Positions 8,105 to 61,310 are shown, counted from the stretch's first letter. The stretch is DNA of 64,000 nt from an uncultured Actinomycetes bacterium (GCA_963847665.1 CAWKAO010000003.1:85453-149452), one strand, 5' to 3'. Notes: generated by a model from the sequence alone, not told the origin. Translations and numbers: made by a program.

Positions 8105-8213
8105 TTTTTAAGAGAGAAATTCTTTCTTTTCCCTATTTTTAAGAACAACTCATATTAGTTTAAAAAATAGTTTAATCAATAATCAACTATTTTACTAATT
8201 ATAATTCTTCTAT

Positions 8214-25694: not shown

Positions 25695-25717
25695 GAATGA
25701 AATCCGTTATGGTATTT

Positions 25718-35694: not shown

Positions 35695-37334
35695 TTGATA
35701 TTTAAAAGTATGTATTTTTTTAGTTCTATCAGAAGTTTTGCAGACAGTAAATATAAGTTGATCATAGTACTTTTTTTCATTATCTTCTTCATAATTGGTA
35801 TATTATCGGTAAGTGATTATGGGATTTCAACAGATGAAGGAGTCCAGCGTGATTTAGGCAATAATGCCTTAAATCTTGTTCTTAAAAATGATAAGGCCAT
35901 ATTTGAATATGAAAATAAGTACCATGGTACTGGTTTTACACTACCCCTAACCATCCTGGTGAAAAGCTTAAATATTAAGAATTTAAGGACTATTTTTTTA
36001 ATCAGGCATTATTTTACTTTTTTATTATTCTACATCTCAGTTATATTCTTCTACTTACTTTGCAGGAAATATTTTTAAGGACTGGAAACTTGGACTGCTT
36101 GGAGGCATTTTTTTAGTCCTTTCACCAAGAATATTTGCAGATTCATTTTACAACCCAAAAGACCTTCCTTTTTTATCAGCTTTTATTGTTTCTATTTTTA
36201 CTCTTAGCAGGTTTCTTGAGACTAAAAATATAAAATTTGCATTCTTACACGGTTTTGCTACAGGATTTGCTACAAGTATCAGGATAATAGGTATCATCAT
36301 TGTCTTTTTTACTTTTCTTTTTTTTATTTTTGATCTGATCCAGATAAAAAAACAGAAAAAAACCATAAATTCATCGCACATCTCCAATGTAATAATAAAT
36401 CTTTTAATATATCTATTTATTATGATAACTATTTTTCTTCTTTTTATGCCTGCACTGATTCCAAACACTATAAATAATTTTATTGGTGCCATAAAGCTTA
36501 TGTCAGACTATCCACACTCAAAAATAGGTCTTTACATGGGAAATATCATTTACGATACCAACCTTCCCTGGCATTATTTGCCTGTAAATATAGCAATAAT
36601 GACACCTATAATTTACACAGTATTATTTCTTTCAGGTTTAATATATTTTTTCAGCCGTTTCAGAAAAAATCTGGATACTTTTTATACCGAAAACAAATAT
36701 ATCATTATTGCTATTTTGTGGTTTTTTATTCCTGATGTTTTCCCAGATATTACTGAGCTCCAACCTGTATAACGGATGGAGGCAGATGTATTTTATCTAT
36801 CCAGCTTTATTGATCATCACACTGATCGGTATTAAATTTTTATTTGATTTCTTTAAAAAAAAGTTGAGTATCAAGAAATATAATGTAGTTGCTACAATTA
36901 TTACCTGTATATTAATCATTAATATAGCTTTTATTGCACAACTAATGATACGGCAGCATCCATACCAATATGTTTATTATAATATACTTGCAGGGAGAAA
37001 CCTGGAAGAGGTAAAGGAAAAGTATCCACTTGATTACTGGGGATTATCTTTCAAAGATGGGCTTGAATACATTCTAAGGACTGATAGCAGGGAAAAGATA
37101 ACTTATTATAACGGAGCCGGGCCAACAAGCTATTCTCAGCTTCTTCTGGATAAACAAGACAGTAAAAGATTAGTTTACGTCAATGATATCGATAAAGCCG
37201 ATTATTATTTAGATAATTATAAAAATATGGATTCTGAATATTACAAACCTTTTAACGGTTTTAGTCTCGAGAAAAAAGTCTTCAGTCTAATAGTAGATAG
37301 CGGAGAAATATTAACTGTTTATAAACTGAAATAG
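35695..37334 (+). pseudogene. Decayed paralog of the ~540-aa GT-C-fold membrane glycosyltransferase (GtrC-type)
   Basis: Three consecutive frames carry the colinear homologue of 43662-45311. A +1 shift sits at ~36072 in a T5 run ('CRKYF|KDWKLG' vs paralog 'CKKIFKDWKFG'). A second shift at ~36745 is a non-homopolymer 2-nt indel ('WFFIP|VFSQILLSSNLYNGW' is restored if 'at' is removed). Confidence 0.7.
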
Positions 37335-38580: not shown

Positions 38581-39901
38581 TGAATCCGGATTTGTTTTAC
38601 GACCAGCTTATAAAAAAAGAAACAAGATATAGCTGTAGTAGGGCTCGGCTATGTCGGTCTTCCATTGCTTATCGAACTTTCCAGATATTTTGATGTCATC
38701 GGCTTTGATTTAAACAGGCAACGAATATCGGAATTGAGGGAAAATCACGACAAGGACAGGAATGTAAGCATTGAAGAACTTACAGGTATTAAATGTAAAT
38801 ATACTGCCGACGTATAAGATCTTAATCTGGCTAACTTCTTTATAATCGCAGTACCTACTCCCATAGATACTGATAAAAACCCTGACATTACACTCTTAAG
38901 GGAGGCGACAATTACTGCTGGTGAGAATATGCCGTCTGGCTCTATCGTTGTCTATGAATCAACTGTATATCCTGGTGTCACTGAAGAAATCTGCATTCCT
39001 TTACTTGAGGAACATTCAAATCTAAAAAGTGGGCGGGACTTTTTTGTCGGTTACTCGCCCGAAAGGGTCAACCCTGGGGACAGGCAGCACACCCTTAAAA
39101 ATATACAGAAAGTCATATCTGCACAGGATGATGATTCTCTGGAAGTAATATCAAAAGTCTACAATAAAATTGTACCTGCTGGTGTTTTTAAGGCTTCAAG
39201 CATAAAAGTCGCAGAAGCCGCCAAAGTCATTGAAAACACCCAGAGAGATCTTAATATAGCTCTTATCAATGAACTTGCTATTATTTTTTCTAAAATGCGA
39301 TATCGATACAAGTGAGGTCCTTGAGGCAGCATCGACTAAATGGAACTTTATTAAATTTTATCCGGGCCTTGTCGGAGGGCATTGTATTGGAGTGGACCCA
39401 TACTACCTTACTTACAAAGCAAAAAAAATAGGATACCAGCCGGATGTGATACTTGCAGGCAGGAAAATAAATGATGGGATGGGATTATTTATTGGTCAGG
39501 AAATAATTAAAAACCTGGAAACAACCTACAAGGATATTAAAGGATCAAAAGCTATTATCTTCGGAATTACTTTTAAAGAGAACGTATCAGACATCAGAAA
39601 TTCCAGGGTGACTGATATTTATGATCACCTAAAGGTAAATGGTATAGATGCTCTTATATATGATCCTATTGCTAATAAAAATGATGTAAAAAAACATTAT
39701 GGAATAGATCTCATCGAGTTTGAAGAAATTAAAGGGGCAGATGCATTTATTTTTTGTGTATCACATAATGAGTTTAAAAATATTGATCTTAAAAGCTTAA
39801 AAGAAAAACAGAACAAAGAAAATCCTTTTATTTTTGATATAAAATGGATATTTAGAAAAGAAGATATAGAAAAGCTTGGTTACAGATACTGGAGAGTATA
39901 A
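38581..39901 (+). pseudogene. UDP-N-acetylhexosamine 6-dehydrogenase (TviB/WbpO/Cap5O-like), multiply disrupted
   Basis: (1) Frameshift in an A7 run at 38611-38617 between 'MNPDLFYDQLIKK' and 'DIAVVGLGYVGLPLLIEL'. (2) In-frame TAA at 38815-38817 ('[21 protein letters not shown]'). (3) Frameshift at ~39285-39300 between 'NELAIIF..' and '[16 protein letters not shown]...GGHCIGVDPYYL'. Confidence 0.75.
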
Positions 39902-40795
39902 ATGAGGCTTAATGAACTTAAGTTTAACAAGAAAATAAAAATACTTGTTACAGGCTGCGCAGGTTTTATCGGCAGCAATATAATGGAATTCCTACTCAGT
40001 AGGGATATGGCTGTTATCGGCCTAGATGATTTTTCTACAGGAACAAAAGATAATATGGATGAAGTTATCAATTCAATTTCTGAAGTCAATGAAAATCCGG
40101 ATTTCAAGTTTATCCAGGGAGATATAAGAGATTATAATTCATGTATTGCGGCGACAAAAAGTACAGACATTGTACTTCACCATGCTGCACTTGGTTCAGT
40201 TCAACGCTCAATTGAAAATCCCGCTGATTCAAGTTCTGTAAATATCGAAGGCACCCTTAATTTGTTAAGAGCTTCAACAGAAAACAAAGTCAAAAAATTT
40301 ATATATGCATCTTCATCATCTGTTTATGGTGATACAGCAATACTGCCAAAAGTCGAAGACATGCCTCCCAATCCAAAATCCATTTATGCAGTGACTAAAC
40401 TAACAGCAGAGTATTATTGCCGCCTGTATTTTGAAATGTTTGGTTTAATGACAATATCATTGAGATATTTTAATGTATTTGGAAGACGTCAAAACCCTGG
40501 TTCCATTTATTCAGCGGTCATACCAAAATTTTTAAAGAAGATTTCAGAGAACCAGCAACCTGAGGTATATGGAGATGGAAATCAGAGCAGGGATTTTACA
40601 TATATTGATAATGTAATATTTGCCAATTATCTTGCTATGACTTCGGAGAATGACAGATTGTATGGCAATTTTTACAATATCGCATGCGCAAAGAGGATCA
40701 GCCTCAATGAAATCATAGGTTTTATTTCAAAGACAAAGGGCATCCAATGTTACACCGGTCTATCTTCCAGAAAGAAAAGGAGATGTAAGGCATAG
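39902..40795 (+). CDS. UDP-sugar 4-epimerase of the WbpP/TviC type (extended SDR), with two frameshifts in the last ~50 codons
   Basis: 'KILVTGCAGFIGSNIMEFLL' NAD motif. The true C-terminus ('PVYLPERKGDVRHSLAGIEKAKK' then 'ILGYYPLVCFDEGFKRTCGSILNK*') is reached only after frame changes at ~40740 and in an A6 run at ~40825. The stop is at 40897-40899. Confidence 0.7.
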   Translation: MRLNELKFNKKIKILVTGCAGFIGSNIMEFLLSRDMAVIGLDDFSTGTKDNMDEVINSISEVNENPDFKFIQGDIRDYNSCIAATKSTDIVLHHAALGSVQRSIENPADSSSVNIEGTLNLLRASTENKVKKFIYASSSSVYGDTAILPKVEDMPPNPKSIYAVTKLTAEYYCRLYFEMFGLMTISLRYFNVFGRRQNPGSIYSAVIPKFLKKISENQQPEVYGDGNQSRDFTYIDNVIFANYLAMTSENDRLYGNFYNIACAKRISLNEIIGFISKTKGIQCYTGLSSRKKRRCKA

Positions 40796-41048
40796 CCTTG
40801 CAGGAATAGAAAAAGCAAAAAAGGATCCTGGGTTATTATCCGCTTGTATGTTTTGATGAAGGCTTCAAACGGACCTGTGGATCTATTTTAAATAAATAAT
40901 AGGTTTTACACCCTTCGACCTCATATCTATATTCATGCATAGATGATTCATATATCCCTCATAATCGACTATAGCAATTTGACATATTAAAAAAAATAAT
41001 AGTAATAATATTCTTATAAATGTATAATGATTTTTTTAAAAAAATTAA

Positions 41049-41744
41049 ATGAAAAATCATATGAAAATAAATTTTCCAGAGAAGAAATTTATTATTAGCC
41101 TTTTTTCTATTACATTGACACTTGCAATTCTAAGTATATTGGGGACAGGTATCGAGATTTTATTTGGGGCATGGAAGATTATGGGAATTAATTATCTTTT
41201 TAATTTTGGGTCAGAACAAAATATTCCTACTATATTTACAACTTTTCTATTCCTTTTGGCAGCACTTCTTCAATTTTTTATTTATCTAAATACAAAAAAA
41301 AGTAGGATTTCTAGATATTGGATTGGACTGTTTTTGTTATTTATATACTTAGCCATTGACGAAGTTTGTGTTGTTCATGAGAGAATCTTAAGAACTGCTA
41401 AACAAATTTTTTCATCAGCGAATTTTAATTCCCATTTTATAATAATGGCTACTGTTTTTATTATTACAGTGATTTTTTTATTTTATAGGTTTTTATTTCT
41501 TATTCCAAAAAAATATTTATTAATTGCAATTCTCTCGGCGATTGTTTATCTTGTGGGCGCAGTAGGTTTTGAAGTTATATCGATTTTTTATCTTAAGACT
41601 TCTAAGGGTGGTTTCATATTGGAGATGATATCCACTATAGAGGAGCTACTTGAAATAACAGGGATTATCTTATACATTAGTTTTATCCTTAAGTATATTA
41701 AAAACGAATTAGATGAACAAGGATTAATAATAAAAATAACATGA
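41049..41744 (+). CDS. Hypothetical integral membrane protein (~6 TM)
   Basis: Hydrophobicity pattern only. No recognisable motif. Confidence 0.35.
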   Translation: MKNHMKINFPEKKFIISLFSITLTLAILSILGTGIEILFGAWKIMGINYLFNFGSEQNIPTIFTTFLFLLAALLQFFIYLNTKKSRISRYWIGLFLLFIYLAIDEVCVVHERILRTAKQIFSSANFNSHFIIMATVFIITVIFLFYRFLFLIPKKYLLIAILSAIVYLVGAVGFEVISIFYLKTSKGGFILEMISTIEELLEITGIILYISFILKYIKNELDEQGLIIKIT

Positions 41745-41821: not shown

Positions 41822-43622
41822 ATGAAAATTATTATTTCAATTTTAATAGCTCTTTTTTTATGTGTTTCAGGTATTTTTGGAGTTGCTTTTATCAAAAATG
41901 CGAGCAAGCCTGAATCAGCGAATAATATAGAAACAACATTAAAAGAAATTGTTGAAACTGCCGGAGAGAAAGTTTCAAATATAAACCAATCTTCAGAATA
42001 TGAGCAGACTAACGTACAGGAAACAATAACTGGAACTGAGTTGAAAGATACAGCAATAGATAAAATAACTTCTGGTGATATAGGTATTGAGTCTCTACCT
42101 TGATGGAGACAGAAATACAGGAATATATCTGGGTAATGCCGTATATGGAGTGAAATCAGATGAAGCTGCTAAAGTCTTTGGAGATGAATATAGAAATACA
42201 GGATTTTATCTTGAATGGGATAGGGCGGGATACGAATTTGAACCCGGTTCTGTTCATTATCTTTATATGTATAATGACATTCCCGGACAGGAGGAGTCCT
42301 ATATAAAAAAAGAAGTAAAGATACCGGGTGACTTAAATACAGCAGGTAATATTATAATGTATCTTGAATTTCCCGTAGAAACAGTACTGGATGAGGGTAA
42401 AAAAGAATTAGGCTTTTCCGGTTGGGCAGTCGATAAAAACAGTAGCAGCGGTACTAACATAGATAGGATCGAGTTTTATCTGGACGGTCCAAGAGGATTT
42501 GGCAAGCTTTTAGGTAATGCAGATTATGGATCTGCAAGGGATGATATTGCAACAAATTATGGCAGTGAATTTATGAACAGTGGTTTCAGGTTTAAATTGG
42601 ACATAAGCGGATTTACAAATGGGTCGCAGCATTCCATTTATATTTATGCAATCTCAGGTTCCGGACAATATCAATTGATCATTAAAAATATAAATATTGC
42701 TGGAGAGTTAAAGAGGCCAGACTCAAATATCTTTATTTCCACCAGTCTTGAAGATGACCCCCAAACAAATCCTGTAGTTATTTCTGGCTGGCTGGCTGAC
42801 ATAGAATATGCTGTCCAAAGAATAGTATTTGTATCAGATGTCAATGGCAATGAAGATATCTTCAGCATGAATCTTGATGGTTCGGATTTAAAGCAGCTTA
42901 CAGATACTCCAGGTGCAGATCTTTATCCAGCAGCATCGTCAGATGGTAAAAGAATACTTTATTCCTCGGATGTAAATGGTGTCTGGCAGATAATGGTAAT
43001 GGACTGGGACGGCTCAAATAAGAAGCAGCTTACATTTAATTCCGAGAGAAATGGAGACCCAAGCTGGTCATTTGATGATAGATATGTCTATTATGAAATC
43101 TTCCAAGATGAAAACTGGGAACTTTACAAAATGGATATAAATGGCAGCAATGTCCAGCGCCTTACTATTAACCCTGTTGTAGATGACTGGCACCCCTTTG
43201 GCCATTCAAGCCAGTACAAGATACTTTATGAAGTGGGGATATCAGGATCCTATGATCTGTATATTATGAATGATGACGGAACAGACATTATAAAAATACT
43301 TGATATACCATTTGATAAAAGAGTTCCCTCGATGTCACCTGATGGAAAATATATCATTTTTCAGGGGAAAGCCTCGGGCGATAAAAATTATAACATTTAT
43401 ATAGTACAGGAAGATGGAAAGAATTTAAAAAAACTTACCAACAATGGGTCTCTGGATGGTCACGCCTTAATATCACCAGATAACCAGCATATTGTCTATG
43501 AGAGTGATCAAAAGGGTAAAAAGCAATTATTTTTGATGAATTTTGATGGTTCTGATAATAAACAACTTACTTTTAACACTAATTACTCATCCTACATGCC
43601 AGATTTCATTTTTATAAAATAG
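41822..43622 (+). CDS. Secreted protein with two tandem ~90-aa N-terminal repeats and a C-terminal TolB-like PD40 beta-propeller. The reading frame is broken at ~42095.
   Basis: Signal peptide 'MKIIISILIALFLCVSGIFG'. Repeats: '...YLDGDRNTGIYLGNAVYGVKSDEAAKVFGDEYRNTGFYLEWD...' and 'IEFYLDGPRGFGKLLGNADYGSARDDIATNYGSEFMNSGFRFKLD...'. PD40 repeats follow ('SPDGKYIIFQG...YNIYIV', 'DIYIMNDDGTD'). The 41822 and 42087 ORFs are the same gene in two frames. Confidence 0.55.
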
Positions 43623-43661
43623 CAGAGAAAATTTTCAAATCTATTTTATAAAAACAAGCCT

Positions 43662-45311
43662 TTGTTATATTATAAAAATATGCATTTTCTGGAGAATGTT
43701 AAAAACTTAGCCGAAAAAAAATATAAGTTTATAATAATCTCTTTCTTCATCTTATTTTTAATTATTGGGATCTTGATTGTTAAAGACTATGGATACTCTA
43801 CAGATGAAGAATATGAAAGAGAACTGGGTAATGACGCTTCAAATCTTGTCTTGAAGAACGATACAAGCTTGTTTGGTATCAGTTATATGTTTCATGGTAC
43901 AGCTTTTACGTTCCCTTTAACAATTATGCAGAAGATTTTTAATATTGAAAATCCAAGGACTACCTTTTTACTTAGGCACTATTCTACTTTTTTACTATTT
44001 TATATAGCTGTTATATTTTTTTATTTACTATGTAAAAAAATTTTTAAAGATTGGAAATTTGGATTTCTTGCAAGTATTTTTTTGGTACTTTCCCCAAGAA
44101 TATTTGTTGATTCATTTTATAATCCCAAGGATCTGCCATTTTTATCATTTTTTATAATTTCCATTTTCACTCTTCAAAGATTTTTCGAGACTAAAAATAT
44201 TAAATTCGCTTTTTTGCATGGTTTCGCTTCAGGATTTGCTGTAGCTTCCAGAATAATAGGTATTATTATACCCTTTTTTACAATTCTTTTTTTTATTGCA
44301 GATTTGTTAATAGAAAAAAAGCAACTAAGAGAAGATAGTAAAACTCAAAGATCCTCTAAAAAAATTCAATACCTACTTATTTATTTATTTATAACAATAA
44401 CTGTTTTTCTTATCTTGATGCCAGCCATGCTACCGGACCCTTTAAATAATTTTATTGCTGCTATAAGAAGAATGTCAGATTATCCCCTTAATGCCAGATT
44501 TCTATATATGGGACAAAATATATCTAGTCTTAACAACCTTCCCTGGCATTATTTACCAGTGAATATAATAATAATGACTCCAATAGCTTATACTGTGTTA
44601 TTCTTTATTGGTCTGGCATTTTTTATTAGCAATATACGAAAAAACATACTTATTTTTTACATACAAAATAAGTATATCATTATAGCTGTTTTATGGTTTT
44701 TTATCCCAGTATTTGCTGCGATACTTTTGAAATCAAATCTATATAATGGATGGAGACAGATGTATTTTATCTATCCAGCATTCTTAATAATCGCATTAAA
44801 GGGTGTCAATTCTTTATATGGGATCTTTAGACAGAAACTGGCACTAAAAACGTATAACTGTTTAGCTGCTGTTATTACTGTATTTCTCATCTTTAACTCC
44901 ATATTTATACTACAGTTGATGATAAAAGAGCATCCATATCAATATATATACCACAACATTATTGCAGGAAAAAATTTAATAGAAGTAAAAGATGATTTTA
45001 CTCTCGACTACTGGGGATTATCATTTAAAGATGGGCTTGATTATATCTTGAAGACCGATAATCGAATTAGAATAACTTATACGTCCCGAAACAGCCCAAA
45101 AGAAAAATCTGAATATCTTTTATCGGAGCAGGACAGCAAAAGACTAGTTTTTGTTACTGATATTAATGAAGCAGATTATTTCTTAAATCATTATAAATCC
45201 TCTGATATAAGACTGGAATTGCAAGGAATAAAGCAAGAATACTTAATAAATAAAGTATATAGTCTGACTGTTGGTGGTGCAGAAATAATGACAGTATTTA
45301 AATTAAGATAG
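43662..45311 (+). CDS. GT-C-fold membrane glycosyltransferase (GtrC-type), paralog 1 of 4
   Basis: 549 aa, ~11 TM segments. Acidic motif 'YSTDEEYE' in the first extracytoplasmic loop, conserved 'FYNPKDLPFLSFF' and 'LPWHYLPVNIIIMTP'. Colinear with 53719-55341, 61311-62927 and the pseudogene at 35695-37334. Confidence 0.65.
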   Translation: MLYYKNMHFLENVKNLAEKKYKFIIISFFILFLIIGILIVKDYGYSTDEEYERELGNDASNLVLKNDTSLFGISYMFHGTAFTFPLTIMQKIFNIENPRTTFLLRHYSTFLLFYIAVIFFYLLCKKIFKDWKFGFLASIFLVLSPRIFVDSFYNPKDLPFLSFFIISIFTLQRFFETKNIKFAFLHGFASGFAVASRIIGIIIPFFTILFFIADLLIEKKQLREDSKTQRSSKKIQYLLIYLFITITVFLILMPAMLPDPLNNFIAAIRRMSDYPLNARFLYMGQNISSLNNLPWHYLPVNIIIMTPIAYTVLFFIGLAFFISNIRKNILIFYIQNKYIIIAVLWFFIPVFAAILLKSNLYNGWRQMYFIYPAFLIIALKGVNSLYGIFRQKLALKTYNCLAAVITVFLIFNSIFILQLMIKEHPYQYIYHNIIAGKNLIEVKDDFTLDYWGLSFKDGLDYILKTDNRIRITYTSRNSPKEKSEYLLSEQDSKRLVFVTDINEADYFLNHYKSSDIRLELQGIKQEYLINKVYSLTVGGAEIMTVFKLR

Positions 45312-45327
45312 CGATAATATTCCCTTA

Positions 45328-46341
45328 TTAATCAACATTCATAATGCAGATATCAGATTTACCTTTATTTATTGATACGTAAGCTATTTTCTTACCATCC
45401 GGTGCCCATGATAGATTCCCATCATCTGATAAATTGTTTGATGAATTCACCTGATCTGATCCGTCAGAATTCATAATATAGATCTCGACATTGCTATCCC
45501 TTTCTGATATAAAAGCTATTTTCCTGCCATCTGGGGACCACGAAGCTGCCGCGTCAGAAGCCGGATTATCTGTCAATCTTGTCTGACCTGTACCATCAGC
45601 ATTCATACTGTATATTTCAACATTATTATTACTAAAAGAAGTAAAAACTATTTTTGTATTATCTGGAGACCAGTCAGGGTAAAGATCATCACCAGGATTA
45701 TCTGTCAATCTTGTCTGGCCTGAACCATCAGCATTCATACTGTATATTTCAGAGTTGCCATCACGTCTTGATTGAAAAAGGATTTTTTTACTATCTAAAG
45801 ACCAAGCAATAGAAGCAGAGTCAGAAGCCGGATTATCTGTCAATCTTGTCTGGCCTGAACCATCAGCATTCATACTGTATATTTCCCAATTGCTATTTCT
45901 GTCTGACATAAAAGCAATTTTCTTGCCATCAGGCGACCAGACAGGGTACGAATCATTTGCTGGATTATTTGTTAGATTATATTCCGTTGATCCGTCAGAA
46001 TTCATAATATAGATCTCAATATTGCCATCCCTTTCTGTTATAAAAGCTATTTTCTTGCCGTCTGGCGACCACGAAGCTGCCGCGTCAGAAGCCGGATTAT
46101 CTGTCAATCTTGTCTGGCCTGAACCATCAGCATTCATACTGTATATTTCCCAATTGCCATCTCTGTTTGACATAAAAGCAATTTTCTTGCCATCAGGCGA
46201 CCAGGCAGGTGAACGATTATCCAAAGAGTCATGAGTGAGAATTATCTTTCCTGTGAGAATCTCTTCATTTTGGCATGCAGAGTTTAGTAAAAAGAAAAAA
46301 ATAACAAATATTGATAGTAATAAAAAAAAGCTTCTCTTCAT
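45328..46341 (-). CDS. Lipoprotein made of seven TolB-like PD40 beta-propeller repeats
   Basis: Lipobox 'LLNSAC'. Repeats of the type 'SPDGKKIAF.S.RDGNWEIYSMNADGSGQTRLTDNPASD'. Confidence 0.7.
   Translation of the reverse strand: MKRSFFLLLSIFVIFFFLLNSACQNEEILTGKIILTHDSLDNRSPAWSPDGKKIAFMSNRDGNWEIYSMNADGSGQTRLTDNPASDAAASWSPDGKKIAFITERDGNIEIYIMNSDGSTEYNLTNNPANDSYPVWSPDGKKIAFMSDRNSNWEIYSMNADGSGQTRLTDNPASDSASIAWSLDSKKILFQSRRDGNSEIYSMNADGSGQTRLTDNPGDDLYPDWSPDNTKIVFTSFSNNNVEIYSMNADGTGQTRLTDNPASDAAASWSPDGRKIAFISERDSNVEIYIMNSDGSDQVNSSNNLSDDGNLSWAPDGKKIAYVSINKGKSDICIMNVD
45541..46150. repeat. Near-identical intragenic tandem DNA repeats (132-141-nt period) encoding the PD40 blades
   Basis: 'ggattatctgtcaatcttgtctggcctgaaccatcagcattcatactgtatatttc' recurs at 45563, 45704, 45830 and 46094 with 0-3 mismatches. 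An ~80-nt block at 45541-45620 is repeated at 46071-46150. Confidence 0.7.
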
Positions 46342-46548
46342 TTTTTATTTAATTAATCTTCTAATATTAAAAAGAAATTATATTTTTATTTTTATATATT
46401 TTCTAAATATATTTTATATTAATTATAAATAAGTTAGAATAACCAATGATATTAAGTTTATTTTAGAAATAATAATTTATCTGTTTATTTCTTCCTTGGT
46501 GATTTATTACATATTTATCCAATAAATAGATAGCTAAGAGTGATTTAA

Positions 46549-47286
46549 TTGGAAAATATATTATCAATAGTAATACCTGCCTATAATGAGCAGAGCAGCA
46601 TCGAGTGTACACTAGATAAAATAATTGAGTATTTTCAAGATACAAACACAACATTTGAATTAATAATAGTCGATGATGGAAGTAGCGATAATTCATTAGA
46701 AATACTAAAAAAATACAGAGCACTAAAATATAAAAATATACTTCCAAATAAGATTATTCTTTTAAATAACAAACGGAATATGGGAAAAGGTTTCTCTGTA
46801 CAAAGAGGAGTACTGAAGTCCAAAGGTAAATTTGTTTTGTTTACCGATGCTGACCTATCTACACCGATAGAAGAAGTTGGAAAAATGCTTCTTTACTTGC
46901 AAAATGGTTATAATATCACTTTAGGCTCTAGAAGTTTGAAAGAATCCAAAGTCATTATCAGACAAAATATTTTAAGACAATCGATGGGAAAAATTTTTAA
47001 CAAGCTTGTGCGTTTGTTTTTGAATATAAAATATTCTGACACCCAATGTGGTTTTAAATGTTTTGATAGAAAAGCAGTTGACATGATCTTTCCAATCCTG
47101 AAAATAATGGATTTCAGTTTTGATGTTGAAATACTTTATTTGGCTCAAAAGCTAGGATTAAATGTAATAGAAATTCCTGTCAGATGGAAAAATGTAGAGG
47201 ATTCTAAAGTAAATATAATAAAAGACTCAATCAAGATGCTCTACAACTTGACCAGAATACGAAGGATACACAAAAAAATTCTATAA
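46549..47286 (+). CDS. Polyprenyl-phosphate sugar synthase, GT2 (DPM1/Ppm1-like, no C-terminal TM)
   Basis: 'LSIVIPAYNEQSSI...LIIVDDGSSDNS...FTDADLSTPIEEV' and 'DTQCGFKCF'. 245 aa. Confidence 0.8.
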   Translation: MENILSIVIPAYNEQSSIECTLDKIIEYFQDTNTTFELIIVDDGSSDNSLEILKKYRALKYKNILPNKIILLNNKRNMGKGFSVQRGVLKSKGKFVLFTDADLSTPIEEVGKMLLYLQNGYNITLGSRSLKESKVIIRQNILRQSMGKIFNKLVRLFLNIKYSDTQCGFKCFDRKAVDMIFPILKIMDFSFDVEILYLAQKLGLNVIEIPVRWKNVEDSKVNIIKDSIKMLYNLTRIRRIHKKIL

Positions 47287-47380
47287 AGCTTTTTGATATA
47301 TTTATTCTGATTTAATAAAAGGAATTTTAGATTATTATAAATTTAATAGTATTCAATTTATAAATAAAGAAAATCACCAT

Positions 47381-48823
47381 ATGACTGAAAACGGAAAAAA
47401 GAGATTATTATATCTAATTATCTTCCTAATTTTTATAGTTTCAGTTTTCTCAACAAACTACATCATGATCAGTAATGATGTACCAGTCAAGGATGCAGGC
47501 GAATATCTATTAATGGCCTACAATTTCGAGAAATACGGAACTTTTTCACTTGAGACCAGAGATATCCCTGACCCTGAACCGACTGCGTACAGGGAACCTG
47601 TGTTTCCTGCATATATGGCCTTTTGTATTTTAATAAATCCGGCAATAAATAATATGGACAGGGAAACACTGTTTAAAGAAGGAAATTTTTATATAAAAGT
47701 AATGCAAATACCTGTTTTGCTAATATTGTCTTTCCTGGTATTTTATATAGTCTTTCTAATCACCAAAAATCCTGTAACAAGCTTTATTACATTGTTTCTG
47801 GTCGGGACAAGTATGACTCTTTCCGATACTGTTTCAAGGTTGTTGTCTGAAAATATTTCGGCATTGCTGATTATTCTAACAGCAATATTTTTTTATAAAT
47901 TAATAACACAGAAAAAAATAATTTTTTTTATCTTATCAAGTATTTCTTTAGGCATTTTAATCCTGGATAAAGCTGTATTCTTATACTTCATTTTTATTGC
48001 CTTCATTTTCTTACTCATTTATTATCTAAAAACAAAATTCTGCACGAAAAAGATATTTATAACGGGATTATTGATTTTTATTCTGACCAGCTCTATTATA
48101 CCCGGTGCATGGATGGCAAGAAATTATTATCACTTTGGCCATTTTGCATTAACCGGAAGAGGAGGAATAGTGCTGTTAGTGCGTGCAGAAAAAAATCTGA
48201 TGACACCAAAAGAATACCTGGCATCATTTTTTTATTGGTCTCCTAGCGAAAAAGTCAGGACGTTGATTTTATCAAAAATTTTATCGGAAAAAGATTATGA
48301 GAGGTTAGATAGGTCTAATAAAAATAGTTTCTATTACCAGGTCACGAGAGTGGAATTAGGTGTTAAGAATGTTCCTGAAACCAATACAATATCACCTGAA
48401 TATACTACCTTTGAAAAAGATTCAGAACTCAGAAAAAAAGCTATTGACCTGATCTTAAAACATCCTATTCGACATATTCTCGCTATACCTCAATTCGTAT
48501 GGAGAGGGCTTTTCCCTGAATCGGGTTTTTTAATAGACCTGCCTGGCAGTACAGAGTTCAAGATTGCAAATAATAACATACTTAATCTATTCATATCCTT
48601 CAGTTTCTTTTACATGTTTATTTTTAGCATTAGAAAAAAAATGTGGAACTTATTTGCATTCTTACTACCCGGAATTTATTTGTTTTCAATAAATTCTTTA
48701 ATGACTCATAATATCGCAAGATATAGCGCACCCATCATCCCGGTTTTAATAATAAGTACTGTGCTTTTCTTTTATTTCAGATTGAAACAACCACACAGCC
48801 ATTCAATTAAAAAAACGGGGTAG
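47381..48823 (+). CDS. GT-C-fold glycosyltransferase of the ArnT/PMT type (GT39/GT83-like)
   Basis: 480 aa polytopic protein. First-loop motif 'NDVPVKDAGEYLLMAYN' and a general ArnT-like TM arrangement. Confidence 0.6.
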   Translation: MTENGKKRLLYLIIFLIFIVSVFSTNYIMISNDVPVKDAGEYLLMAYNFEKYGTFSLETRDIPDPEPTAYREPVFPAYMAFCILINPAINNMDRETLFKEGNFYIKVMQIPVLLILSFLVFYIVFLITKNPVTSFITLFLVGTSMTLSDTVSRLLSENISALLIILTAIFFYKLITQKKIIFFILSSISLGILILDKAVFLYFIFIAFIFLLIYYLKTKFCTKKIFITGLLIFILTSSIIPGAWMARNYYHFGHFALTGRGGIVLLVRAEKNLMTPKEYLASFFYWSPSEKVRTLILSKILSEKDYERLDRSNKNSFYYQVTRVELGVKNVPETNTISPEYTTFEKDSELRKKAIDLILKHPIRHILAIPQFVWRGLFPESGFLIDLPGSTEFKIANNNILNLFISFSFFYMFIFSIRKKMWNLFAFLLPGIYLFSINSLMTHNIARYSAPIIPVLIISTVLFFYFRLKQPHSHSIKKTG

Positions 48824-48852
48824 AAATTTAATCAAATCAATTAGCAGTATTA

Positions 48853-50859
48853 TTATTCAGAATATTTAATCTCATATATTTCAAGATTTTTTATCACTGC
48901 GGTACCATCATCTAAGGTATAGATCCTGAAATATATATTTCCGCTTTCTGGGATCTCTCCTGAATTTAATATTTCTATTATCTGGGTAAATTTTTCACCT
49001 GGATCCTCAAGGGCAACATTGAACTCCTGTTCAGGTCTGTCATACCCATCGGCAAAGAAATCAAAATTTATATAAGCGTCGCTAAAGGTTTCATTTTTGA
49101 TCTCAAAACTTATCAGATAATCCGTATTGTCTTTAATATCTATAGGTGTTTTTAAAACCTTAAGAATATTTTTTCCACCATTTAAAAATATACTTTTCTT
49201 ATCAGGCAATATCTCCATATTTTCATATTCCGCAGAATCTAGAGTTTTATAATCAAGCAATGGGTTAATTGAAGACTTTTTAAAAGAGTAAAGGACAAAA
49301 TCTTCAAAACCGACTATTGAGTCATCAAATTTTTTATTGATCCTCTTAAATAAATATTTTTCCGGGACTCTATCATCCTGCACCGCACTTCCATTGACTA
49401 CGACAAGGATTTCCTGGCTCTTATTCATAAACGAAAGCGCTTTTTTAAATATTACCTCTTCCCTGAGATCATTTGACCTTATACTGTAAGGGCAAATCCT
49501 CCCGAAGGTATCAGACTGTGGAAAGTATATATCCTTGTTCAGATAAGCGACAATTGTATGGACGTCAATATCTTTATAACCTACTATCACTGTATTTTTA
49601 AGGTCAAAATTTCCATCGATATATTCTGCGATCTGTTTTCCTGAAGAATAAGGATACCTATAATCATAATAAGCTGCTGTGGCTGAGCTGCTTATAGTTA
49701 GTGATAGGACTAATATTAAAAATATTTTACCCAGTAAAATATTTTTATTTCGCTTAAATCTAATAAGGTAAGCACTTCTGTCATCCTGTAGGTCAGATAG
49801 CCAGATGCACGCGGCCATAAATATAAAAATCAGTCCACCGTGCCTTGTGCCGCCGTATATAAAATAAATCGCACCTATAAGGGTTGAAGCACCGATCAAA
49901 TATAGCCATGCTATTCTTTTTTTCATTAACAGGACTGGAAATAAAAATATTACCAGCGAAAGTATATAAAGATAAACATGGTTAAATCTTAAAAGAAATG
50001 AATAGATAAGATTAGTATTCCTGAACTCAAAACCAAAACGTGGTATCTGCAAAAAGACAGATATTATATATTTGGATGCCAGAAAAGGAAATCTGCTTAG
50101 TTGTTCGGCTGTCACATTAAATATAGTCGTCACTGATGGTCCCCAAACAGTCCCCTGTATCGCCTGTGAGCCAAGTTCCCAGAAAAGCAGCACAAAACCT
50201 GCAATGATTATCAATGAAAAGATAGATAATTTTGTCCTGGTTGTTTGTTTAAGAATATCTCTTCTGTCAGAAATAAAATCGATTATCATTAACAGCAAAA
50301 AAAATAAAGATATTAGAAAAGTATATAGATGGGCCTGGCCCATAAAAAATAATGCAATCGATATGGGGATCAGATTCTTATACTTATCCCTGTAAAGAAC
50401 GCAAAAAATAATGATCGGCAGGACCCCCAGCGCATAATTTCTTGAAACTATTGAATATTCATAAAATGGAAAGTATCCAAAAACAAATAAAACATTGATT
50501 ATTTTATTAAAGGGGGAATATTTCACAAAGAGAAAACAGGTTGAGGAGGATAATATCAAATGGACTATTTTCATACTTTCAGGATTTCCAGTCGCGAAGT
50601 GGGAGATCAAATACAGAATGGCGTTCCATAAAAAAGGATGCCCATAATTATCCCGCATATTGAAAAGAAATTCCCGGATATTACTGCTTCCTATTGCAAT
50701 GTTCCAGGCTTTTGCTTCATCGCCCCAGAGTTCATGGCGGAGGATGAGTATTACACTTAAAATCAAAAATAAAGCAGTTATGATATAAGGAAAAGCTTTC
50801 TCCAAGGTTTGGTATTTTTTACTGTTAAGATTTGACATTTTTCTTTGAGTCCGAAACAT
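48853..50859 (-). CDS. GT-C-like polytopic membrane protein with a conserved ~120-aa C-terminal soluble domain (domain type A)
   Basis: N-terminal ~400 aa with about 11 TM segments and a 'WGDEAKAW' first-loop acidic motif. The C-terminal 'DYLISFEIKNETFSDAYINFDFFADGYDRPEQEFNV...ILNSGEIPESGNIYFRIYT...IKNLEIYEI' is homologous to the C-terminus of 55365-57488. Confidence 0.5.
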   Translation of the reverse strand: MFRTQRKMSNLNSKKYQTLEKAFPYIITALFLILSVILILRHELWGDEAKAWNIAIGSSNIREFLFNMRDNYGHPFLWNAILYLISHFATGNPESMKIVHLILSSSTCFLFVKYSPFNKIINVLFVFGYFPFYEYSIVSRNYALGVLPIIIFCVLYRDKYKNLIPISIALFFMGQAHLYTFLISLFFLLLMIIDFISDRRDILKQTTRTKLSIFSLIIIAGFVLLFWELGSQAIQGTVWGPSVTTIFNVTAEQLSRFPFLASKYIISVFLQIPRFGFEFRNTNLIYSFLLRFNHVYLYILSLVIFLFPVLLMKKRIAWLYLIGASTLIGAIYFIYGGTRHGGLIFIFMAACIWLSDLQDDRSAYLIRFKRNKNILLGKIFLILVLSLTISSSATAAYYDYRYPYSSGKQIAEYIDGNFDLKNTVIVGYKDIDVHTIVAYLNKDIYFPQSDTFGRICPYSIRSNDLREEVIFKKALSFMNKSQEILVVVNGSAVQDDRVPEKYLFKRINKKFDDSIVGFEDFVLYSFKKSSINPLLDYKTLDSAEYENMEILPDKKSIFLNGGKNILKVLKTPIDIKDNTDYLISFEIKNETFSDAYINFDFFADGYDRPEQEFNVALEDPGEKFTQIIEILNSGEIPESGNIYFRIYTLDDGTAVIKNLEIYEIKYSE

Positions 50860-51093
50860 ATTAGGTAATGATATTTATTATAATTTATTATAGAAACTTG
50901 AAAAGACTTTGATCAACAAGAATATACCATATAATGACAGAATCAAATTATAATGTTAATTATTTTATTTTAATCAATAATAAATTAAATGTTTAAAAAT
51001 ATCTCTTAAAAATTTATAATAAGAAAAAATATTTTTTTCGGACCTGACATAGTAATCAGAACTTTTTCATGGACTGATATCCTTGAGGGAAAA

Positions 51094-52689
51094 ATGACGG
51101 AAAATTTTAACCATCAATTAAATGACTCCAACAGCTTTGGTAATGATATCAAGTCCATCTTCATAAAAGACTATAAATTTATAATATTTGCTTTTATTTT
51201 CGCTATCACTACACACATATTACTATGGATAGCATACCCGCTTCACTGGGGCCCGGATGGTCCAAATTACATTTATTACTACCTGGATATTTTTAATAAA
51301 AATCCATTATTTCCGATGATTTTGACATACAGGACTCCTGTTGCGCCTCTTTTCTATGGGTTTTTATTGGAGCTCGGTGGAAGCATTGCTGTTTCAATGG
51401 TAATTGAGGTCCTATCGCTTCTTCTTATTCCTGCAGTTTATTTACTGTCACTATCATGGGGAAAATATTCTGCCAGGGTAGCGACTATACTTTTTATCGC
51501 ATTCCTGCCATATCAAATTCAGTTTCACCAGATCAGTTCAGATGCTCTCTTCTCATGGTTTGTACTGATTTTCTTTCTTTCGCTTAAATATGCTATCGCT
51601 CATAAAAATATCTATTCATGGTTGATATCGGGTATTATTGCATCTTTGACAATCCTTACCAGGCCTTCAGGCCTTGTAATAGTTATTATCCCTGTTGTCT
51701 TATTTTTCCTTAATCTAAAATTTAAAAAAATATTAAAACTTGCCGGAGTCTTCCTATTATGTATAATTGTTTTTCTTGGCTCATTTATTATTTTTAAGGG
51801 AGTAAGGTTAAACGACTATGGTCTGTCCAGAGGCTCAAATTATACCGCTTTTATGAGGATCTACACTCTTCAGGAATCTTTATGGAGCCCGGATAATGGG
51901 CCAGAATCAAAAAAACTTGTTTCAATAGTCGAGGAAAAACTTCTAACTACAGATCTTTATAAAAAATATGATATCGATATTAAAAAGGTTCTGGCACACC
52001 AACCAAACAGAAGAATACTTGGAGATATCATAGTCACAGTTGACCGGGTAGAAGGCTGGAACACTGAATATGAGCTTTTAAAAAAAGTCGCCTATGAGTC
52101 AATTAAGGCCAGCTCTTTTTCATTTCTTGAACATTATTTAAGGGATATATTATTGCTTATCACCATAAACCAAGATGTCCCGGAAGCCCCTGGAATAAAT
52201 GATACAAAAATATACCTGAACGATATAAATTCTTATACTGAAGAGGATCTTCCCAAACCAACAGAAGGAGAGTTAATTCCTTTTTCAAATACCTGGTGGA
52301 TGCTTTCCCGCCCAGATGGAAGTCTTCCCAGTACCTTGCAACTAAGTAATTTCAATGAAAGATATGAGGCTATTGTATCAGACATTGACAATCCAGGAGG
52401 TTCAGAAAAGCTTGTAAAGCTAGTAAACAGGTTATGGGATACGATTAATATACCTATCTCATATTTTTGGGTGTTTGGAATTTTTGCAATAATATTTTCT
52501 AAAAAGTTAAACAGGATTTTATTGATCACGATAATCATTTTTTCTCTGATAATAATTGTCGGCACATTGTATGCGGCACATGTATATACACGATACAGGC
52601 TACCACTTGACCCTTTATTGATGATAGCAGGTGTTGCAGGATTTTTTTCGATAATCGAAAGAATCCATCAAAAAAATCAAAATAATTAA
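51094..52689 (+). CDS. GT-C-fold glycosyltransferase (ArnT/PMT-like)
   Basis: 531 aa, multi-TM, first loop 'YPLHWGPDGPNYIYY'. ArnT-like architecture. Confidence 0.5.
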   Translation: MTENFNHQLNDSNSFGNDIKSIFIKDYKFIIFAFIFAITTHILLWIAYPLHWGPDGPNYIYYYLDIFNKNPLFPMILTYRTPVAPLFYGFLLELGGSIAVSMVIEVLSLLLIPAVYLLSLSWGKYSARVATILFIAFLPYQIQFHQISSDALFSWFVLIFFLSLKYAIAHKNIYSWLISGIIASLTILTRPSGLVIVIIPVVLFFLNLKFKKILKLAGVFLLCIIVFLGSFIIFKGVRLNDYGLSRGSNYTAFMRIYTLQESLWSPDNGPESKKLVSIVEEKLLTTDLYKKYDIDIKKVLAHQPNRRILGDIIVTVDRVEGWNTEYELLKKVAYESIKASSFSFLEHYLRDILLLITINQDVPEAPGINDTKIYLNDINSYTEEDLPKPTEGELIPFSNTWWMLSRPDGSLPSTLQLSNFNERYEAIVSDIDNPGGSEKLVKLVNRLWDTINIPISYFWVFGIFAIIFSKKLNRILLITIIIFSLIIIVGTLYAAHVYTRYRLPLDPLLMIAGVAGFFSIIERIHQKNQNN

Positions 52690-52703
52690 AAAGGCAGACC
52701 GCT

Positions 52704-53660
52704 ATGAAACTTTTTATACAGGTACCATGCTTTAATGAAGAAGCATTTATCAGAGATACGCTTGATGCTTTCCCTGAAAAAATTAATGGCATAGACACAA
52801 TAGAAATCCTTATAATCGATGATGGCAGTAGCGATAATACTATAGAAGTCGCAAAAAAATGGGGTATCGAGCATATTTTAAAACTTCCGGGACATTTGGG
52901 CCTTGCAAAGGCATATATTGCAGGTATAGAGTACTGCCTTAAAAATGGTGCTGACATTATAGTCAATACAGATGCTGATAACCAATATTATTCTGAGGAT
53001 ATAGAAACCCTTGTAAAGCCCATACTGGGGAGGGAGGCAGAATTAGTAATCGGGACAAGACCGATCGATGAAATAAAGACTTTTTCATTTACGAAAAAAC
53101 TGCTTCAGAAATTTGGAAGCTGGGTTGTTAGGGTTGTCTCAAATTCTGAAGTTAAAGATGTCACCAGCGGATTCAGGGCACTTACCAGAGATGCAGCAAG
53201 TAAAATAAACGTCTTTTCCAATTATACCTACACAGTCGAAACAATAATCCAGGCTGGCCTGAGCGGCATTACAACAATTTCCGTTCCGATCAGGGTCAAC
53301 AAACAGACCAGGCCTTCAAGACTGATCCGGAATATTCCTGAATATATTTTCAGGAATCTGTTCACTATACTTAGAATTTTTTTACTCTATAAACCCTTTC
53401 GGTTTTTTGCACTGATAAGCTTAATATTCGGCATTCCCGGTATTACACTCGGCATAAGATATTTATACATTCTCGTAAATGGTATCCCCGGGCAACATAT
53501 TCAATCCCTTATACTTTCAGCTATACTTATAATCGCTGGAGTCTTATTTTTTATCCTTGGGTTGCTGGGAGACCTTATATCAGTTAACAAGAAACTTTTG
53601 ATCGATATAAAAGCATCTTTAAGATTATCAAAATTCGATGGAGATAAAAACAATAATTGA
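52704..53660 (+). CDS. Polyprenyl-phosphate sugar synthase, GT2 (GtrB-like) with C-terminal TM pair
   Basis: 'KLFIQVPCFNEEAFI...LIIDDGSSDNT...VNTDADNQYYSEDI' followed by two C-terminal TM helices. Immediately upstream of GT-C paralog 2. Confidence 0.8.
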   Translation: MKLFIQVPCFNEEAFIRDTLDAFPEKINGIDTIEILIIDDGSSDNTIEVAKKWGIEHILKLPGHLGLAKAYIAGIEYCLKNGADIIVNTDADNQYYSEDIETLVKPILGREAELVIGTRPIDEIKTFSFTKKLLQKFGSWVVRVVSNSEVKDVTSGFRALTRDAASKINVFSNYTYTVETIIQAGLSGITTISVPIRVNKQTRPSRLIRNIPEYIFRNLFTILRIFLLYKPFRFFALISLIFGIPGITLGIRYLYILVNGIPGQHIQSLILSAILIIAGVLFFILGLLGDLISVNKKLLIDIKASLRLSKFDGDKNNN

Positions 53661-53718
53661 TTTTTAACATATGATTGTTATATATAAAAATAAATATTTT
53701 TATTAAAAAACTTTTTAT

Positions 53719-55341
53719 ATGCTAGAAAGAATAAAAAAAATAGCTGAAAATAATTACAGGGTCATTGTAATTATTTTTTTTATAGCTTTTCTTATAATCG
53801 GCCTGATTTCTGTCGGCGATTATGGATTTTCCACAGATGAAGGACTGCAGTATGATCTTGGGAACTCTGCTGTAAAATTGTTATTAAATAATGATAGGGT
53901 CATTTATGAATTAAATAACAGGTATCATGGCACGGCTTTTACACTCATCATGACCATAATACAGAGAAATTTTGATATCAGTGACACAAGGACTATTTTT
54001 TTATTAAGACATTATTTTACTTTTTTACTTTTCTTTACCTCAGTTATACTTTTCTATTTTCTCTGCAGGAACATTTTTAAATCATGGAAAATCGGATTAC
54101 TTGGCAGCATCTTCCTGGTCCTTTCTCCAAGAATATTTGTAGACGCTTTCTATAATCCAAAAGATCTTCCTTTTTTATCTATGTTTGTTATTTCTATCTT
54201 TACACTCAATAGGTTCCTTGAAAAAGGTGGGCTAGGGCTGGCATTTTTTCATGGGATAGCTTCAGGTTTTGCCTGTAGCATGAGAATTGTCGGTGTATTG
54301 GTTCCCTTTTTCACAATATTATTTCTTATTTTTGAACTGGTCCTTAAAAAAAAGGACAGCCAAAATACTAAAGACATGCAGATCAAAAAAAGGATACAGC
54401 ATCTGCTGATATACTTACTTATTACGATAATTGTCTTTCTCGTACTTATGCCTTCTATCGTTACAGATCCTATAAAACATTTCTTTGCCGCCATCAAGCA
54501 TATGTCAGATTTTCCCCATAACACTACATTTTTATATATGGGACAGGTTTTAACCACCGGAAATGGCCTGCCCTGGCATTATTTGCCTGTAAATATATTA
54601 ATAATGACTCCTATTCCCTATACCATTTTATTTTTTATAGGGATCGTATTTTTATTCGTCCAGGTAAAAAGAAAAAACGGGATTTATTATAATGCGAACA
54701 AATATATTATTATTGCTGTCTTATGGTTCTTAATGCCTGTACTTTCTGCAATTTTTTTAAGCTCCAATATGTACAACGGATGGCGCCAGATGTATTTTGT
54801 TTATCCGGCATTTTTAATAATAGGGTTAAATGGTGTTAAAAAAATATATGGGATTTTTGAGAAAAAATTAAAGCCGGGATACTATAATATTATTTCAATA
54901 ATGATTACTGGTCTATTATTAATTAATATAGTATTTTTTACACAGATAATAGTAAGATTGCACCCATATGAATATGTCTATCACAATATGCTTGCAGGAA
55001 AAGACCTGAAAGAAGTCAAAGAAAACTTCATACTTGATTACTGGGCTTTATCCTATAAAGACGGTTTTGAATATATTTTAAGAACTGATAATAGAGATAA
55101 AATAACTTTTACAGTAAGATGTGCTCCAAAGGAATCGCTAATATCTCTTTTCCCGGAGCAGGATAGAAATAGGTTGAAATACGTTACTAACATCCAGGAT
55201 GCAGATTATTTTTTGAATAATTATCAGTGCGGTGATCTGATCCTTGAATCACAGGGAGTCGAGCAGTCAGACTTGAAGAATAAGGTATACTCTACATATT
55301 TAAATGGTGTAGAATTACTGGTAGTCTATAAGTTAAAATAA
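53719..55341 (+). CDS. GT-C-fold membrane glycosyltransferase (GtrC-type), paralog 2 of 4
   Basis: 540 aa. 'DYGFSTDEGLQYDLGN', 'FYNPKDLPFLSMF' and 'LPWHYLPVNILIMTP' are colinear with 43662-45311. Confidence 0.65.
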   Translation: MLERIKKIAENNYRVIVIIFFIAFLIIGLISVGDYGFSTDEGLQYDLGNSAVKLLLNNDRVIYELNNRYHGTAFTLIMTIIQRNFDISDTRTIFLLRHYFTFLLFFTSVILFYFLCRNIFKSWKIGLLGSIFLVLSPRIFVDAFYNPKDLPFLSMFVISIFTLNRFLEKGGLGLAFFHGIASGFACSMRIVGVLVPFFTILFLIFELVLKKKDSQNTKDMQIKKRIQHLLIYLLITIIVFLVLMPSIVTDPIKHFFAAIKHMSDFPHNTTFLYMGQVLTTGNGLPWHYLPVNILIMTPIPYTILFFIGIVFLFVQVKRKNGIYYNANKYIIIAVLWFLMPVLSAIFLSSNMYNGWRQMYFVYPAFLIIGLNGVKKIYGIFEKKLKPGYYNIISIMITGLLLINIVFFTQIIVRLHPYEYVYHNMLAGKDLKEVKENFILDYWALSYKDGFEYILRTDNRDKITFTVRCAPKESLISLFPEQDRNRLKYVTNIQDADYFLNNYQCGDLILESQGVEQSDLKNKVYSTYLNGVELLVVYKLK

Positions 55342-55364
55342 AACAAGAGGGATAAACGTTTAAT

Positions 55365-57488: not shown

Positions 57489-57567
57489 TTTAACAGGATA
57501 TTTTTACATATCATTTAGATGGAAAAAAATATATAATATCGACAGTTAAAAACAGCAAAAAGGTTTT

Positions 57568-60182: not shown

Positions 60183-60233
60183 AAATTTATATTCAGATTT
60201 AAATAATATTAGATAAAATCCTCAACTTAAAAT

Positions 60234-61274: not shown

Positions 61275-61310
61275 CGTGGGCCTTTTCATAATGAAAAAAA
61301 TAGCAACTTT

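Follow-up and report, generated by a model that had tools for sequence, protein, structure and literature searches.

Are two beta-propeller proteins encoded on either side of a membrane glycosyltransferase gene TolB-like partners of that enzyme, or are they ordinary surface proteins of the glycan cluster in which they lie? This question was raised by positions 41,822 to 46,341 of a 64,000-nucleotide (nt) stretch of DNA from an uncultured Actinomycetes bacterium (GCA_963847665.1, CAWKAO010000003.1:85453-149452), hereafter called the window, in which an earlier sequence-only reading had described two TolB-like PD40 propeller genes flanking a gene for a GT-C fold glycosyltransferase. As shown in Table 1, four open reading frames (ORFs) were relevant: a 93-residue leader and a 511-residue body, together termed gene A; a 549-residue glycosyltransferase ORF, termed GT-C1; and a 337-residue ORF on the opposite strand, termed gene B. 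Our analysis indicated that gene A and gene B probably encode ordinary surface PD40 propeller proteins in an envelope-glycan cluster, being neither TolB nor dedicated partners of the adjoining GT-C.

Identity and setting of the two propeller genes

The Pfam PD40 family (PF07676) matched both proteins above its gathering threshold, namely, gene A with 103 bits (E 5.7e-30) and gene B with 241 bits (E 2.1e-73). Six blades were counted by eye in the former, and seven stretches were matched in the latter, as had been described for this convergent gene. GT-C1 exceeded the gathering threshold of PMT_2 (PF13231) by a narrow margin (27.3 bits against 26.1). The ORF listing and the Pfam matches thus bore out the presence of PD40 protein genes on either side of a GT-C gene, with 39 nt, not the 40 first given, between the gene A body and GT-C1, and 16 nt between GT-C1 and gene B.

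The designation of both proteins as TolB-like was found to hold for the propeller part and not for family membership. The TolB equivalog (NCBIfam TIGR02800) has a cut-off of 343.15 bits, whereas gene B scored 297.4 and gene A 158.3 bits, and the best matches of both proteins covered only about positions 240-399 of the model, which correspond to the propeller. The Pfam domain TolB_N was matched by neither protein. In addition, no tolQRA-tolB-pal setting was seen among the ORFs examined between 37 and 63 kb, a part of all window ORFs, which encoded glycosyltransferases and sugar-modifying enzymes. The likeness to TolB therefore consists in a C-terminal PD40 propeller that gives partial equivalog matches, whereas gene B has seven blades, gene A carries immunoglobulin (Ig)-like domains and a membrane anchor, neither possesses the TolB N-terminal domain, and the likely host is an actinobacterium. 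On these profile matches, gene A and gene B are classified as PD40 propellers and not as TolB. A single-membrane envelope is usual in Actinomycetota and was assumed for this host; if the assumption holds, a periplasmic role of the Tol-Pal kind would not apply.

The window as a whole, with a G+C content of about 33%, appeared to be devoted to glycan biosynthesis, encoding a priming phosphotransferase, a Wzt-like ABC ATPase, O-antigen-ligase-like proteins, sugar-modifying enzymes, and many GT-C and GT2 glycosyltransferases. Several of its GT-C genes matched the PMT_2/PMT families; the paralogues of GT-C1 were found at 61311-62927 (close) and as fragments upstream (Table 1). Jointly with the reading given above, and with the same fair confidence, the host is taken to be an uncultured low-GC Humimicrobiia-like actinobacterium, and the locus to lie within a large cell-envelope glycan cluster.

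Architecture, family and frame break of gene A

In gene A, the propeller is preceded by a domain present in two tandem copies, in agreement with the sequence-only reading, and an alignment of these copies with the two of P0002, the protein of the closest relative (locus L001), contained 23 invariant positions. The domains gave no match to Pfam, including Big_7 (PF17957), even at E <= 1. In an exhaustive search of 1.84 billion representative proteins, however, the domain profile retrieved 1016 matches at E <= 1e-3, each with 2-8 copies. Ten of these matches were examined, among which were N-acetylmuramoyl-L-alanine amidases and subtilases; Big_7 was annotated in nine and, where compared, coincided with the stretch matched by our profile. 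An AlphaFold2 model of domain 2 built from a 37-sequence alignment (predicted local distance difference test, pLDDT, 95.8) displayed a beta-sandwich with one short helix, and a fold search with this model returned generic Ig/E-set matches. When the PDB was searched by sequence with the domain profiles, the amidase 8c4d was the only match and a marginal one (E 0.05). Based on the overlap with Big_7 and the Ig-like model, the tandem domain is predicted to be a bacterial Ig-like module of a divergent Big_7 type; such modules are frequent in secreted proteins, and its presence points to an extracytoplasmic location and to nothing more specific. It shares with Big_7 of the secreted amidases and subtilases the beta-sandwich fold, the tandem copies, and the annotated stretches on which the profile lands, but differs in missing the Pfam model, in a conserved helix insertion (YG..R.D.A...G....NSGF), and in its fusion to a PD40 propeller.

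The propeller blades of gene A are diverged, the longest internal DNA repeat being 12 nt. AlphaFold modeling of the whole 511-residue body from a two-sequence alignment was poor (pLDDT 58); the model showed a blade-like strand pattern and was not used for fold searching. Between Ig-like domain 2 and the propeller (42711-42815), the short stretch NIFISTSLEDDPQTNPVVISGWLADIEY, which continues directly into the propeller, is similar to the initial strands of the Ig-like copies and may be a remnant of a third such domain.

When 185,579 species genomes were scanned with the gene A alignment, about 28 loci matched its full length, nearly all in metagenome-assembled genomes (MAGs) of uncultured Actinomycetota, the sources including Candidatus Hydromicrobium of the class Humimicrobiia. 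Exactly two domain copies were present in 43 of the 47 ORFs matching gene A. The window gene represents a second subtype, which also includes L001, L002 and L003 (57-59% identity); since one MAG carries both subtypes (L002 and L017), these are paralogues. The other subtype resides in a block conserved in at least 14 MAGs, in the order GT1, GT2, GT1, PD40 paralogue, small gene, gene A, small gene, DUF11/GDSL esterase, polysaccharide deacetylase, GT-C (TMEM260-like/PMT_2), GT2, and radical SAM. The PD40 paralogue, which in most MAGs lies a short distance upstream of gene A, is 674 residues long and shares the Ig-Ig-PD40 architecture, with two domain copies; the GT-C is separated from gene A by about 4 kb and two secreted enzymes. 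In L004-L022 (about 1-21500 each), the small genes encode 153 and 177 residues, and the block ends with a B12/radical SAM gene. This block in Humimicrobiia-like MAGs is a candidate envelope-glycan assembly locus of the class.

L001, whose P0002 is 59% identical to gene A overall, also adjoins a GT-C; this enzyme is of the paralogue 6 type and convergent, whereas GT-C1 belongs to a different paralogue group and lies on the same strand as gene A. The L001 cluster and the window share GT-C4/5/6-like genes, a GT2 and a 231-residue polytopic membrane protein. The latter, encoded directly upstream of gene A at 41049-41744, has no Pfam or NCBIfam match, and its L001 counterpart (7790-8467, 180 bits) is on the opposite strand. 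In L002, the gene A homologue is followed by housekeeping genes of SIS-domain isomerase-like, Nif3-like and RNase H type (functions read by eye), with no GT-C within 4 kb downstream. The linkage of the gene A family to envelope-glycan genes in general is thus a real property, while direct GT-C adjacency, seen only in the window and L001, is not conserved.

The same reading had treated 41822-43622 as one coding unit. As given, gene A is not a single ORF: leader and body lie in different frames, the body frame being closed upstream by TAG at 42081-42083 and the leader frame ending with TGA at 42101-42103, so that a +1 break must fall within 42084-42100. Of the two EFYLDG motifs reported to open the tandem domains, the first occurs in no reading of the given sequence, since the body frame reads SLYLDG; deletion of C 42093 would yield ...GDIGIEFYLDG, matching IEFYLDG of the second copy. 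Among the gene A homologues with a readable N-terminus, a hydrophobic N-terminus is in frame with the body in all 21 apart from L001, with total lengths of about 590-610 residues, and only the window and L001 copies are broken. The L001 break (about 9820-10060) lies elsewhere than that of the window, its anchor ORF being one frame off the body with a CCCC run in the overlap; removal of one C from this run would join the two frames. Programmed +1 frameshifting was considered, as both copies shift +1 between leader and body; because the sites differ and the 21 others are in frame, a conserved programmed frameshift was ruled out. An alternative genetic code was also rejected, given that the in-frame stop of the dehydrogenase gene is TAA and that TGA, TAA and TAG all terminate long ORFs.

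At least 11 disruptions were counted in the 64 kb of otherwise conserved biosynthetic genes, and most of the break intervals examined contain A/T runs of 6-8, a pattern suggestive of indel errors left over from long reads or, alternatively, of a cluster in decay. For gene A itself, a sequence error is the favored explanation, with a good though not commanding probability. The breaks at A/T runs fit long-read indel errors, the body carries no further damage and aligns with P0002 along its length, and the L001 break sits at its CCCC run. A real inactivation, which would make gene A a pseudogene or a leaderless cytoplasmic fragment of 511 residues and leave one working member beside the GT-C, is less probable but carries appreciable weight: the gene A interval is devoid of homopolymers, unlike most other breaks examined, none of nine single-base-repaired versions of gene A was present in a collection of 15 billion proteins, and nearby genes combine an in-frame TAA (38815) with frameshifts in a decay-like manner. 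In view of these many breaks, the gene models of this assembly need repair before use.

Relation to the adjoining glycosyltransferase

It is doubtful that the propellers are GT-C substrates, with Ser/Thr-rich linkers O-glycosylated as in Pmt-type O-mannosylation, a proposal as speculative as the scaffold discussed below. Pmt-dependent protein O-mannosylation does occur in actinobacteria, and the idea draws on the PMT_2/PMT matches of the window, on the match of the conserved-block GT-C to a TMEM260-like protein O-mannosyltransferase, and on the linkers of window-type gene A proteins, which are rich in Ser, Thr and Glu. However, the linkers of the other subtype are mostly Glu and Pro with few Ser or Thr, gene B has no such linker, and PMT_2-family membership does not establish a protein acceptor.

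A more ambitious proposal is that the anchor-Ig-Ig-PD40 family (2-3 paralogues per genome) would be an obligatory extracytoplasmic part of a GT-C-dependent envelope glycosylation machine in Humimicrobiia-like Actinomycetota, gene B being a rapidly varying surface propeller in which blade conversions alter the exposed binding face. Although such a role, if true, would explain the constant placement of the family in the conserved glycan block, we regard it as unlikely.

The sequence-only reading had proposed that both propellers may be extracytoplasmic scaffolds holding or presenting the acceptor for the GT-C between them. In favor of this are the short gaps on both sides of GT-C1, the adjacency of the L001 homologue to a GT-C, and the presence of the other subtype in a block with a TMEM260-like/PMT_2 GT-C. 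On the other hand, the adjoining GT-C differs between the window and L001, L002 has none nearby, that of the conserved block lies about 4 kb from gene A, and gene A is frame-broken in the window. Moreover, gene B was not found in the 10-kb flanks of the L001 cluster, and no GT-C or GT2 was detectable by phmmer in any of the 80 loci, totalling 600 kb, that harbor relatives of gene B. With the sub-threshold TolB matches and the missing TolB_N, these results left the scaffold proposal unsupported and quite improbable.

The gene content around the propellers resembles systems of GT-C O-mannosyltransferases (PMT/PMT_2, TMEM260-like) with GT2 synthases of polyprenyl-phosphate sugars, a donor-synthase plus GT-C being a usual arrangement. 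The GT-C expansion extends over 43662-62927, with seven to eight paralogues at 43662, 47381, 48853 (-), 51094, 53719, 55365, possibly 57568, and 61311 (-), interleaved with three GT2 genes at 46549, 52704 and 59232. This likeness concerns the neighboring genes and not the propellers; to our knowledge no PMT system with a PD40 partner has been described, and none of the titles and abstracts listed by one literature search described a PD40/GT-C partnership.

Blade repeats of gene B and significance of the locus

Gene B encodes blades of 44-45 residues, the last being truncated. Its label as a lipoprotein is uncertain: judged by eye against the lipobox criterion [LVI][ASTVI][GAS]C at the signal peptide end, the region ...FFFLLNSAC(23)QNEE fits at Cys23, at -1 (Ala) and at -2 (Ser), but Asn at -3 is non-canonical. 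Exact repeats of 74, 56, 56, 50, 37 and 33 nt were detected at spacings of 264, 135, 399, 531, 264 and 267 nt, respectively, all multiples of 3, and Tandem Repeats Finder reported periods of 132 and 267. These in-frame spacings make loss or gain of whole blades by recombination physically possible. The near-identical repeats of more than 55 nt reported in four blades were confirmed, with a tract of 54-56 nt identical in blades 1, 3 and 4 and differing at 2 positions in blade 5. When the gene B codons were redrawn synonymously 300 times from the window's own usage, the longest repeat expected was 17.8 +/- 3.8 nt (max 35) against the observed 74 nt, and the chance that two independent encodings of a shared 18-residue peptide coincide was about 6e-8.

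The resemblance between blades is mosaic. Blades 1 and 3 are 88% and blades 2 and 6 are 86% identical in DNA; the 3' halves of blades 1, 3 and 4 are identical, whereas their 5' halves are only 51-79% identical. Mismatches are accordingly clustered, with identical tracts of 54-62 nt beside segments of 51-79% (permutation p <= 2.5e-4 for pairs 1-3, 1-4 and 3-4). This mosaicism with clustered mismatches indicates that the blades underwent gene conversion or unequal exchange among existing copies, not a single recent duplication, and is in accord with the recent intragenic recombination proposed earlier.

Continuous amplification is known from all propeller lineages, together with high internal symmetry and blades whose nucleotide sequences, too, are almost identical (Afanasieva et al., 2019, PMC6805158; Pereira and Lupas, 2022, PMC9218822); on highly symmetric, recently amplified propellers, the latter cites Chaudhuri, Söding and Lupas (2008). 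Gene B resembles these in its in-frame repeats and in the near-identity of its blades, which includes synonymous sites; such cases are known from different propeller lineages and phyla. It differs in that homogenization is partial and mosaic, with half-blade tracts and the pairs 1/3 and 2/6, a pattern better explained by conversion among existing blades than by fresh amplification of one blade.

Exact in-frame repeats at blade spacing are common in related PD40 genes: over 80 such genes from other metagenomes, the longest repeat had a median of 24 nt and a maximum of 71 nt, reaching at least 30 nt in 22 genes and at least 50 nt in 4; the 74 nt of gene B is at the top of this range, yet on the same continuum. 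Relatives of gene B at about 50-60% identity number in the thousands, and a search of the collections for strain variants found none above about 64%. No encoding contig was retrieved by exact look-up for gene B, GT-C1 or P0001. The 15-billion-protein collection contains the gene A body, the GT2 and GT-C2, which share a 708-kb contig with gene B, but lacks the exact gene B protein; a different gene call may have been stored for this repetitive gene.

An assembly or polishing artefact, such as collapse or artificial homogenization, would be in keeping with the many frame breaks, the missing exact protein and the caution advised for repetitive propeller genes, whose blade counts may be mis-assembled (PMC9218822), but is most improbable, considering that gene B is an intact ORF with the full count of seven blades and a distinct first strand and last blade, that its repeats, at 50-74 nt, are below typical read size and anchored by diverged flanks, that comparable repeats occur in 22 of the 80 related genes from other assemblies, and that a 19-kb contig assembled independently from run ERR15459714 begins near 46120, within the 74-nt repeat, where a de Bruijn assembly would break if the repeat is present in the reads.

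Table 1. Positions of the genes, domains, repeats and disrupted genes discussed, counted from the first letter of the window
Feature	Coordinates	Strand	Basis or remark
Gene A leader (5' fragment), 93 codons: hydrophobic anchor/signal, Ser/Thr/Glu-rich linker, first strands of Ig-like domain 1	41822..42103	+	ORF listing; homologue N-termini
Interval containing the gene A +1 frame break	42084..42100	+	Stops in both frames
Gene A body, 511 residues	42087..43622	+	ORF listing
Ig-like (Big_7-type, predicted) domain 1, residues 1-83 of the body; N-terminal part cut by the frame break	42087..42335	+	A3 profile 52.5 bits; alignment A1
Ig-like (Big_7-type, predicted) domain 2, residues 84-208, beta-sandwich with short inserted helix	42336..42710	+	
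Six-bladed PD40 propeller, residues 244-511, and stop codon	42816..43622	+	Pfam PD40 E 5.7e-30; blade count by eye
GT-C1, GT-C fold glycosyltransferase (paralogue 1), PMT_2 family, polytopic membrane protein, 549 residues	43662..45311	+	Pfam PF13231, paralogues
Gene B, 337-residue predicted secreted protein, signal peptide with Cys23, seven PD40 blades	45328..46341	-	ORF listing, Pfam
Gene B blades 1-7	46096-46227, 45964-46095, 45829-45963, 45697-45828, 45565-45696, 45433-45564, 45331-45432	-	
74-nt exact repeat, copy 1, blade 1 end into blade 2 start; holds the 56-nt tract common to blades 3 and 4	46084..46157	-	Gene nt 185-258
74-nt exact repeat, copy 2, blade 3 end into blade 4 start	45820..45893	-	Gene nt 449-522
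56-nt exact repeat, third copy, blade 4 end	45695..45750	-	Gene nt 592-647
Fourth copy of the shared tract, blade 5 end	45565..45618	-	2 mismatches in 54 nt
50-nt exact repeat over the blade 5/6 junction	45536..45585	-	Identical to 46067-46116 at the blade 1/2 junction
RmlD fragment	18244-18834		
LPG_synthase_TM gene in three pieces	24714-25706		
ABC ATPase gene in two pieces	26895-27648		
GT-C1-like fragments	35695-37334		
UDP-glucose/GDP-mannose dehydrogenase, broken	38590-39901		In-frame TAA 38815, frameshift near 39290
Epimerase tail, broken	40740-40900		Two shifts near 40760-40860

An AT-rich tandem repeat (22-nt unit, 2.5 copies) was observed at 46375-46431, between gene B and the divergently oriented GT2 at 46549. 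A scan for promoters and terminators performed no better than on shuffled sequence.

Taken as surface PD40 propellers of an envelope-glycan cluster, gene A would combine an anchor/signal segment, an acidic Ser/Thr linker, two Big_7-type Ig-like domains and a six-bladed propeller, in a family found almost only in Actinomycetota MAGs, the window copy being broken by assembly error or by a real inactivating mutation. Gene B would be a stand-alone seven-bladed propeller with blades partly homogenized by gene conversion or unequal recombination, the usual amplification-and-differentiation behavior of propeller genes. Both proteins are predicted to be ligand-binding modules displayed on the cell surface; their position next to GT-C genes would reflect the role of the entire region in envelope biogenesis, and the propeller linkers may themselves carry glycosylation.

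Several points weigh against this reading. Surface location was deduced by eye from hydrophobic segments at the N-termini, and the host taxonomy is indirect, having been taken from homologues rather than from a marker gene of the window. Furthermore, gene A adjoins a GT-C in both closest loci, the window and L001, so that some functional tie to GT-C is possible. As for gene B, blade pairs 1-3, 1-4, 3-4, 3-5 and 2-6 reach 70-80% identity, but the median over all 21 pairs is 56.8%, just below the 60% above which a propeller is defined as highly repetitive (PMC9218822), which speaks for partial homogenization rather than fresh amplification.

The homogenization of gene B is a new example of a documented phenomenon, the concerted evolution of PD40 blades, and gene A is a clade-restricted but conventionally built surface protein. 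If the explanation preferred here, ordinary surface propellers in an envelope-glycan cluster, is true, the value of the locus would be modest: it would document mosaic gene conversion among PD40 blades and, for the Humimicrobiia-like actinobacteria, whose cell envelope is essentially unstudied, it would provide the first description of a clade-restricted surface family, composed of an anchor, two Ig-like domains and a PD40 propeller, tied to a conserved envelope-glycan block.

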